IMG/VR virus record: IMGVR_UViG_2671181106_000001
Length of the DNA stretch: 7,942 nt
Reading direction: 5' to 3' (one strand)
Origin: a virus
Taxonomy: Duplodnaviria > Heunggongvirae > Uroviricota > Caudoviricetes
How positions within the stretch are numbered: the stretch's first letter is position 1; every line of letters starts with the position of its first letter. Under the pieces are notes generated by a model. It ran no database searches. It had not been told where the DNA came from and saw only the letters and a program-made list of their open reading frames with translations. Of this stretch, positions 1-721 are shown one piece after another. A program made the position numbers and the translations under genes.

Positions 1-1
1 A

Positions 2-88
2 TCCATCACCACTGGCAAAAGAGATCATGTCCGGTATCTGATTTTCCCCTGTTCCTACATTCCGTTTTGCCGCTTCTCCCAAACCAAC
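2..88 (-). CDS. Partial open frame entering the presumed invertible segment; candidate 5' end of a silent alternative tail-fibre variable-region cassette, truncated by the window edge
   Basis: Minus-strand frame is open from the crossover site to the window edge (translation ...[31 protein letters not shown]...); one other minus frame has an early stop (TAA) and the third stops at the window edge. Position abutting the invertase crossover site matches the Mu G-segment / P1 C-segment layout. Only about 30 codons are visible, so an open frame is weak evidence by itself. Confidence 0.3.
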
Positions 89-99
89 GTTTATGAAAA
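74..99. other. hix/gix/cix-type 26-bp invertase crossover site (12-bp imperfect inverted half-sites around a 2-bp AA core)
   Basis: TTCTCCCAAACC-AA-CGTTTATGAAAA matches hixL (TTCTTGAAAACC-AA-GGTTTTTGATAA, recalled from memory) at about 20 of 26 positions; the half-sites are imperfect inverted repeats of each other; it lies about 55 bp upstream of the invertase start, the canonical position. Confidence 0.65.
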
Positions 100-154
100 T
101 GCAGAGATAATGGCTAACTGGCATCATCCCCGGTTTTTATTCAGGGGGATGATC

Positions 155-721
155 ATGCTTATTGGCTATGTACGCGTGTCAACAAATGACCAGAACACCG
201 ATTTGCAACGTAATGCACTGAACTGCGCGGGATGTGAGCGGATTTTTGAGGACAAAATCAGTGGCACAAAGTCCGACAGACCAGGGCTGAAAAAACTGCT
301 CAGGACACTAACGGCAGGAGACACTCTGGTTGTCTGGAAGCTGGACAGGTTGGGGCGCAGTATGCGGCATCTTGTTACGCTGATAGAAGAGTTGCGCCAG
401 CGTGGTGTGAATTTCCGAAGCCTGACTGACAGTATTGATACCAGTACCCCAATGGGCCGTTTCTTTTTTCATGTCATGGGTGCCCTGGCTGAAATGGAAC
501 GCGAACTGATAGTTGAACGTACCAGGGCGGGGCTGGCTGCAGCTCGTGCTAAAGGCAGAGTAGGTGGACGCCGTCCTAAGTTGACCACCGAACAGTGGGC
601 ACAGATTGGACGTTTACTCGAGGCCGGAGAATCAAGACAGCGTATTGCACTGATTTTTGATGTGGGTGTTTCCACAATTTATAGAAAATTTCCGGCAAAT
701 AAGAGCAATGAATCCCCCTGA
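155..721 (+). CDS. Serine-recombinase DNA invertase, Gin/Hin/Pin/Cin family
   Basis: N-terminus MLIGYVRVSTNDQNTDLQRNAL is essentially identical to Mu Gin as I recall it, with the catalytic Ser in the YVRVSTNDQ motif; conserved VVWKLDRLGRS and GRFFFHVMGALAEMERELI blocks; C-terminal HTH (VGVSTIYRKF). Start placed at ATG 155 (AGGGGG at 143-148, 6-nt spacer) rather than the track's ATG 110, which would add an unconserved 15-aa extension. Confidence 0.95.
   Translation: MLIGYVRVSTNDQNTDLQRNALNCAGCERIFEDKISGTKSDRPGLKKLLRTLTAGDTLVVWKLDRLGRSMRHLVTLIEELRQRGVNFRSLTDSIDTSTPMGRFFFHVMGALAEMERELIVERTRAGLAAARAKGRVGGRRPKLTTEQWAQIGRLLEAGESRQRIALIFDVGVSTIYRKFPANKSNESP

Follow-up and report, generated by a model that had tools for sequence, protein, structure and literature searches.

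A Gin-type invertase and crossover site, very probably the right-hand end of a Din-family tail-fibre inversion switch, in a P2-like prophage of Escherichia coli

The window, as the whole 7942-bp stretch of DNA analysed here will be called, is the tail half of a P2-like prophage (Table 1). Over positions 1–900 its top match among complete genomes is E. coli S21 (99.1%), and positions 11–900 are 96.6% identical to phage Cartapus (Peduoviridae, Elveevirus), in whose record the first gene is labelled 'DNA-invertase, Mu phage Gin invertase homolog'. In the alignment with S21, a short GpE-family open reading frame (2933–3052) overlaps the end of E and the start of T, and corresponds to the E/E+E' frameshift pair of P2-like tails. 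At the far end of the window (7792–7942), ogr (7792–7856) is interrupted after codon 21 by an insertion sequence that begins at 7857. This is an IS21-family element of 1954 bp with IstA/IstB genes, as read in locus L099, and with a 5-bp target duplication; the insertion is common to the window and to the E. coli assembly GCA_014103515.1. Since ogr encodes the late-gene activator, the prophage is probably unable to switch on its late operons by itself.

Table 1. Features of the window, in window coordinates
Feature	Position	Strand	Basis or remark
Last 86 nt of the invertible segment	1–86	-	First ~28 residues of the silent alternative fibre C-terminus
Right arm of the 89-nt inverted repeat	11–99	.	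Crossover site and first ~21 conserved codons of both cassettes
Right 26-bp crossover site, TTCTCCCAAACCAACGTTTATGAAAA	74–99	+	Centre 86–87
Invertase leader	100–154	+	Predicted RNA hairpin
Gin/Cin-type serine DNA invertase (serine recombinase), 188 aa	155–721	+	Pfam, Gin identity; after 154-bp leader
Putative recombinational enhancer	173–244	.	Nt 19–90 of the invertase gene; aligned with the P1 cin enhancer
Proximal Fis-pattern 15-mer, TGTCAACAAATGACC	177–191	.	Centre 184
Distal Fis-pattern 15-mer, GCGCGGGATGTGAGC	225–239	.	Centre 232, 48 bp from proximal
Sheath FI	864–2036		
Tube FII	2046–2561		
Chaperone E	2616–2918		
Tape measure T	3045–6122		
U	6119–6604		
D	6601–7701		

A sequence-only reading of this DNA had recognized a 26-bp site of the hix/gix family at the left end of the window and, about 55 bp beyond it, a Gin-like serine invertase, and both identifications hold. 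The invertase gene starts at the ATG at 155, which is 55 bp past the site and 68 bp downstream of the crossover centre; a longer open reading frame (110–721) was rejected as the gene because it is merely an in-frame upstream extension. The protein matches the Pfam families Resolvase (2.6e-53) and HTH_7 (1.4e-15) and can be aligned without gaps to residues 1–184 of the Mu Gin structures 3uj3 and 4m6f, with 77% identity. The Ser9 nucleophile, the VRVSTNDQ motif and a C-terminal helix-turn-helix domain (HTH_7) are all present, and the protein thereby has the make-up of the Din family, that of a small serine recombinase of about 190 aa with catalytic and helix-turn-helix domains. Fis-independent mutants of Gin arise at positions 106 and 114; here, His106 and Met114 are in the wild-type state, and the crystallised Gin chains carry V114. 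An index of the assembly collection lists the identical protein in 206 blocks.

The crossover site itself reads TTCTCCCAAACC-AA-CGTTTATGAAAA and consists of two 12-bp half-sites, TTCTCCCAAACC and, on the opposite strand, TTTTCATAAACG. It is unique in the window at up to three mismatches, and none of 200 shuffles gave a match. The site aligns to the boundary of the Mu G segment and to the site of Fels-2, with which it shares 17 and 22 of 26 bases, respectively, as counted by eye. Its inner half-site has 10 of 12 bases in common with the annotated cixL of P1, which has the same TT/AA centre; the P1 record places the crossover between the two central bases. As the sequence-only reading supposed, the window holds the right site and the invertase; of the invertible segment it holds only the last 86 nt.

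The left site and the cassettes were therefore read not from the contig of the window but from relatives, chiefly GCA_014103515.1, which is identical to the window outside the segment. In the S21 prophage (locus L001, where window position equals L001 position minus 9000), an 89-nt imperfect inverted repeat, 81% complementary, has its arms at 7495–7583 and 9011–9099, so that the right arm stops exactly at window 99. The left arm begins TTCTCGCATACC-TT-GGTTTGGGAGAA, and the reverse complement of the right site is TTTTCATAAACG-TT-GGTTTGGGAGAA; the inner half GGTTTGGGAGAA and the core dinucleotide are thus common to both, and the two sites are in inverted orientation. This is the arrangement found in the Din family, namely two inverted 26-bp sites with identical central 2 bp. 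The left site, in the form TTCTC[AG]CATACC-TT-GGTTTGGGAGAA, lies inside the tail-fibre gene H. The inverted partner that had been predicted within a few kb upstream is thus found, at a distance of about 1.58 kb in the prophage of GCA_014103515.1, and it occurs also in about 70 other loci. A scan of about 90 related loci for half-sites placed the right site about 81 nt ahead of the ATG in nearly all those with enough upstream DNA, and a single inverted partner 1.1–2.1 kb upstream. The centre was invariably TT in the left site and AA in the right one. The half-site scan replaced a stricter search requiring 32 nt of the inner repeat, which missed most loci because the cassettes differ among prophages. 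At one locus (L062), the right site, at 3420–3445, and the left one are exact reverse complements of each other (outer half GGTATGCGAGAA); this perfect 26-bp inverted repeat may be the product of gene conversion between the sites.

The segment between the site centres measures 1581 bp. Within it lie the C-terminal variable part of H, a plus-strand Caudo_TAP chaperone and, on the minus strand, a second chaperone and a second Gp53-like_C fibre C-terminus, so that the gene order in S21 and Cartapus is H, chaperone (+), chaperone (-), gp53-like C-terminus (-), invertase and sheath. Pfam searches and annotation of five loci (L001, L002, L004, L008 and L099) agree on Phage_tail_fib, Gp53-like_C and two copies of Caudo_TAP. 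The genes upstream of the window are accordingly of the tail-fibre kind surmised earlier, that is, a P2 H-type fibre with two Caudo_TAP chaperones and a second Gp53-like_C C-terminus. What the segment offers is two opposed sets of C-terminus and chaperone, each of which can be fused in frame to one constant part, the reading frame being intact across both junctions. Each cassette consists of a Gp53-like fibre C-terminus of ~121–123 aa followed by its own Caudo_TAP chaperone. The two C-termini start alike and then diverge (51% identity over the first 68 aa, unalignable beyond), and the two chaperones are 24% identical. The gp53-like open reading frame annotated in S21 at 8714–9124 (-) spans window 1–86; its annotated start (window 124) was rejected as the true start, being merely an in-frame ATG past the crossover site, at the head of a cassette without an N-terminus of its own. 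In the orientation of the window, the silent cassette appears to be the one that is paired with the 147-aa chaperone in near-identical relatives. A single base in it, the A at window 24, differs from every related locus, L099 flipped in silico included, where it is G; it replaces Thr by Ile (DMTSF to DMISF).

That the segment should be met in both orientations had also been foreseen, and such heterogeneity is seen at the level of assemblies, both between near-identical genomes and within one scaffolded assembly. Between 54 and 7942, the prophage of GCA_014103515.1 (L008/L099) does not differ from the window at a single base, and yet its segment has the opposite orientation. Since the identity extends to the IS21-family junction, the inversion must be very recent. 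If the 1581 nt that separate the site centres of that prophage are inverted in silico, the result agrees with the window everywhere but at base 24. The reverse complement of window 1–85 is found fused to H at the left junction in six loci (L005, L007, L008, L009, L010 and L012), and loci with the identical invertase protein fall into two classes, in which the 131-aa and 147-aa chaperones are swapped. In scaffold KE136868.1 (L010), the 1581-nt segment is present twice, 100% identical and in opposite orientations, with 900 N between the copies; the contigs end at the central AA/TT dinucleotides, one with ...CCAAACCAA before the N run and the other with TTGGTTTGG... after it. A double segment broken at the centres implies that both orientations were present in one sequenced culture and that the breakpoints are the predicted crossover points. 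When complete E. coli genomes were searched with a 2301-nt query, either native or flipped in silico, and matches were counted at a query coverage of at least 80%, the native arrangement was found in 11 and the flipped one in 16. Sister records in opposite states are OY754416 and OY754389, CP019245 and CP019246 of Combat13F7, and several O157:H7 strains; among the IMG/VR scaffolds, several are broken at the sites. As far as assemblies can show, the DNA between the sites thus exists in both orientations, as it does in the Din family.

Inversion in this prophage type is real and evidently active. Together with the anatomy described above, this makes it very probable that the locus forms the right-hand end of an inversion switch of the Din family, borne by a P2-like (Peduoviridae) prophage that is integrated beside ybjL in E. 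coli.

The interrupted ogr has a bearing on what the switch can do in the source strain, where the fibre genes may not be expressed and the switch may consequently be phenotypically silent. The orientation of the fibre segment differs between the window and GCA_014103515.1 although both have the split ogr. One may imagine that flipping goes on in a prophage devoid of late-gene activation and that the invertase is maintained for some other reason, a proposal that we consider unlikely. The reason may then be action in trans on other invertible segments of the same genome (E. coli genomes have up to 7 places that match the query), or help given to a P2-like or satellite element resident in the same cell, from which Ogr/Delta would come, or else a hairpin in the invertase leader that would hide the ribosome-binding site and keep the rate of flipping low and tunable. 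It is less easy still to regard the switch as a fossil that no longer flips here, with the orientation differences as old inherited states. The prophage is indeed defective, its ogr being split by the IS21-family element, and many related loci are degraded or rearranged, as exemplified by the deletion from sheath to tape measure in L024. Such decay is nevertheless difficult to reconcile with a window and a relative that agree from 54 to 7942, the insertion sequence included, and yet differ in orientation, with two orientations at 100% identity in one assembly, and with an invertase reading frame that is intact and identical across hundreds of contigs. A fossil is therefore very improbable, and a working Din-family switch is the reading retained in what follows.

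Switches of this family commonly call for a recombinational enhancer, and the sequence-only reading had expected a Fis-dependent one within the invertase gene. In the P1 record the cin enhancer is annotated at nt 19–90 of cin, and a four-way alignment maps this block to window 173–244. The expectation thus stands at the level of sequence, since the coding region contains the cin-homologous block; the place named, the first 100–200 bp, can be narrowed to nt 19–90. Two Fis sites about 48 bp apart had likewise been anticipated, and two 15-mers that match the Fis pattern lie exactly 48 bp apart within the block. The Fis consensus has been given as GNTYAAAWTTTRANC (PMC6907758) and as GNtYAaWWWtTRaNC (PMC2816674), and the two-site pattern used in the search, KNNYRNNWNNYRNNM-N33-KNNYRNNWNNYRNNM, is our relaxation of the two. 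It occurs once in the window, at 177–239, against a chance expectation of 0.55 per whole window; the match alone accordingly proves nothing, and its weight comes from position and conservation. At the specified positions of GNTYAAAWTTTRANC, the proximal 15-mer matches at 9 of 13 and the distal one at 8 of 13, a moderate fit in both cases. The former, 97.5 bp from the crossover centre, has T, not G, at -7; the latter carries G (-7), Y (-4), R (+4) and C (+7). An alternative register of the proximal 15-mer, 176–190 (G...C), was dropped because the Y/R and W positions fit at 177–191, where the spacing is exactly 48 bp.

Both 15-mers fit the pattern in all 38 distinct 5' ends compared, those of Mu gin, P1 cin and Fels-2 included, and the substitutions within them fall at unconstrained positions or exchange allowed bases. 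Synonymous diversity, measured over 78 distinct invertase genes, has its minimum in codons 1–30 (0.10–0.21 versus 0.25–0.43 elsewhere), codons 7–30 ranking 6th lowest of 151 windows of codons. Third-position conservation across Mu, P1 and Fels-2 is in clear excess only in nt 1–30 and around GGATGTGA, and is weak in nt 31–90. The Hin enhancer is 65 bp long, with a Fis site at each end, lies about 100 bp from hixL, and has AT-rich ATTTA and TAATG between the Fis sites (PMC3798978); the window carries ATTTG and TAATG in the same places. On balance, 173–244 is a putative Fis-dependent recombinational enhancer.

The leader of the invertase is predicted to fold into a hairpin in which 124–131 pairs with 145–152, extended to 120–159. 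The structure (-26.6 kcal/mol, z -2.8, RNA fold) takes in the Shine–Dalgarno sequence GGGGGA and part of the AUG, and may act as a translational throttle on the invertase; we infer this role, as we do the dependence on Fis. The hairpin is kept in close relatives, in some of them through C-to-U changes that yield G-U pairs, and a group at 87% identity has a shifted version. A sigma-70 promoter scan of the plus strand gave no good match for the invertase. The 16 nt before the invertase start (TTTTATTCAGGGGGAT, window 135–150) are repeated with 94% identity ahead of the minus-strand chaperone gene (8698–8713 and 9135–9150 in L001), so that the two genes have a ribosome-binding region in common, perhaps as a scar of recombination or by coincidence.

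If the Gin/Hin paradigm applies, dimers of the invertase would bind the two inverted 26-bp sites, the one at 74–99 and the one ~1.58 kb to the left inside H. As in Hin, Gin and Cin, synapsis would probably owe its activation to a pair of Fis dimers on the enhancer, spaced by 48 bp in the first 90 nt of the invertase gene and about 100 bp from the right site, the site-bound dimers and the Fis-bound enhancer coming together on supercoiled DNA. Ser9 would then cleave at the central AA/TT dinucleotide, and a 180-degree rotation followed by religation would join the 349 constant codons of H to the other cassette at L-GLGE, which would place the matching chaperone in the same transcript. The cassette facing H would be in frame and transcribed from the late operon, and the other would be silent because it has neither N-terminus nor promoter. 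From the divergence of the cassettes we infer that the two orientations may differ in adsorption specificity and hence in host range.

The sequence-only reading had described the switch as lying upstream of the tail operon. This is correct as to position; it does not extend to control, since the switch has no hold over FI–D. It terminates the V-W-J-I-H-G late operon and exerts no control over the sheath–tube operon, FI–D, whose upstream region is common to prophages without a switch. A TGT-N12-ACA dyad, the hallmark of Ogr-dependent P2 late promoters, is located at 770–787, 77 bp upstream of the FI start, and fits P_F, the Ogr-dependent late promoter of P2. There are three such dyads in the window versus 2.1 expected by chance, and its position alone is thus suggestive. 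One could suppose that the inversion turns the downstream tail operon (sheath to D) on and off, in the manner of Hin and fljBA, by moving a promoter and not by a coding swap. Although the invertase lies directly upstream of FI, and the title of the earlier reading was open to such an interpretation, the segment is on the opposite side of the invertase from FI and holds opposed, N-terminally incomplete fibre cassettes, and everything from window ~741 on, the dyad and the FI leader included, is shared by prophages with the same tape measure but without the module, which leaves this supposition scarcely any room. That the enzyme is a transposon- or plasmid-type resolvase and the 26-bp match fortuitous is just as hard to credit, for although the Pfam families Resolvase and HTH_7 do not separate invertases from resolvases and the gamma-delta and Tn3 resolvases were matched too, the bit score of the protein is 312 with Gin and 122 with gamma-delta resolvase, the site has an inverted partner with identical core, inversion is observed and no transposase is nearby.

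The inversion of coding cassettes is thus the reading preferred, and the module that carries it appears to be exchangeable as a whole. Some of the ybjL-site prophages with the identical 1025-aa tape measure have the inversion module and others are without it; the latter type has a 695-aa H, a single chaperone and no invertase. Comparison of L096–L098, L101 and L102 with L099 and L100 over window ~1–741 shows that module-less and module-bearing types become homologous again from window ~741, 20 bp past the stop codon of the invertase gene. The module as a whole behaves like a mosaic block that can be swapped, and this position marks its right boundary.

Switches of this kind are already known from Mu, P1, e14 and Fels-2, and the present one does not depart from them. 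In layout and protein, the nearest counterpart of the locus among the systems compared here is Mu Gin; the core of its site most resembles that of P1 cix, and its genomic context is most like that of Fels-2, Cartapus and the enteropathogenic E. coli (EPEC) prophages. The order of the elements is that of the Mu G segment, namely fibre gene, invertible segment, site, ~68 bp and invertase; the segment boundary of Mu is 67 bp upstream of gin, and the crossover centre here is 68 bp upstream of the ATG. The payload is also alike, alternative fibre C-termini and chaperones, and both invertase genes have the conserved enhancer block in their 5' part. On the other hand, the segment here is 1.58 kb long, whereas the Mu G segment is about 3 kb; the centre of the site is AA here and GA in Mu; and the cassettes are short Gp53-like_C domains in an element that is P2-like, not Mu-like. 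The invertase is 79% identical to Cin of P1 over the first 175 residues, and the C segment of P1/P7 has the same TT/AA centre, with a nearly identical inner half-site (GGTTTAAGAGAA there and GGTTTGGGAGAA here). The annotated P1 enhancer aligns with the block described above, but the crossover site is placed differently in the two systems, overlapping the 3' end of cin in P1 and lying upstream of the 5' end of the invertase gene here.

The same slot of the P2 genome, between H/G and FI, is occupied in Fels-2 (Fin), SEN8, pro483, Cartapus and the prophages of EPEC E2348/69. The Fin invertase of Fels-2 was reportedly the subject of work by Kutsukake et al. in 2006. Despite the similarity of its site, Fels-2 has a GA core, a segment of ~2.7 kb and other cassettes. 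Salmonella Hin also recombines 26-bp sites, whose hix core is AA as here, and its enhancer is similar in geometry, with a length of 65 bp, a Fis site at either end and a distance of about 100 bp to the closer crossover site; however, Hin flips a promoter and its gene lies inside its own segment, whereas here coding sequence is swapped and the invertase lies outside. In the P2-like prophages of EPEC E2348/69, inversion has been shown by sequencing and PCR (PMC4272514); one of them has three repeats and four variants, compared with two sites and two variants here.

The locus adds nothing new to the mechanism of serine invertases, and its value is mainly practical. A prophage able to present two alternative receptor-binding tips is relevant to the prediction and engineering of host range in P2-like phages and tailocins. 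At this phase-variable region, short-read assemblies are broken or duplicated precisely where the crossover sites lie, and in view of these breaks and of the spurious 'gp53-like' starts, knowledge of the anatomy should aid both annotation and the quality control of assemblies. Four loci with three or four sites (L032, L036, L064 and L010) are a case in point: at first sight they resemble multi-segment shufflons, a reading that was rejected because each is a scaffold whose pieces are linked by N runs at the sites, and thus an assembly artefact and not biology. In two IMG/VR contigs, L024 and L089, the 5' part of a second invertase gene, ~84–86% identical, lies inverted on the left side of the segment, accompanied in L089 by a sheath fragment; in L024, the sequence is missing from the sheath C-terminus up to the tape measure. 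This layout may be either a real rearrangement or a palindromic misassembly.
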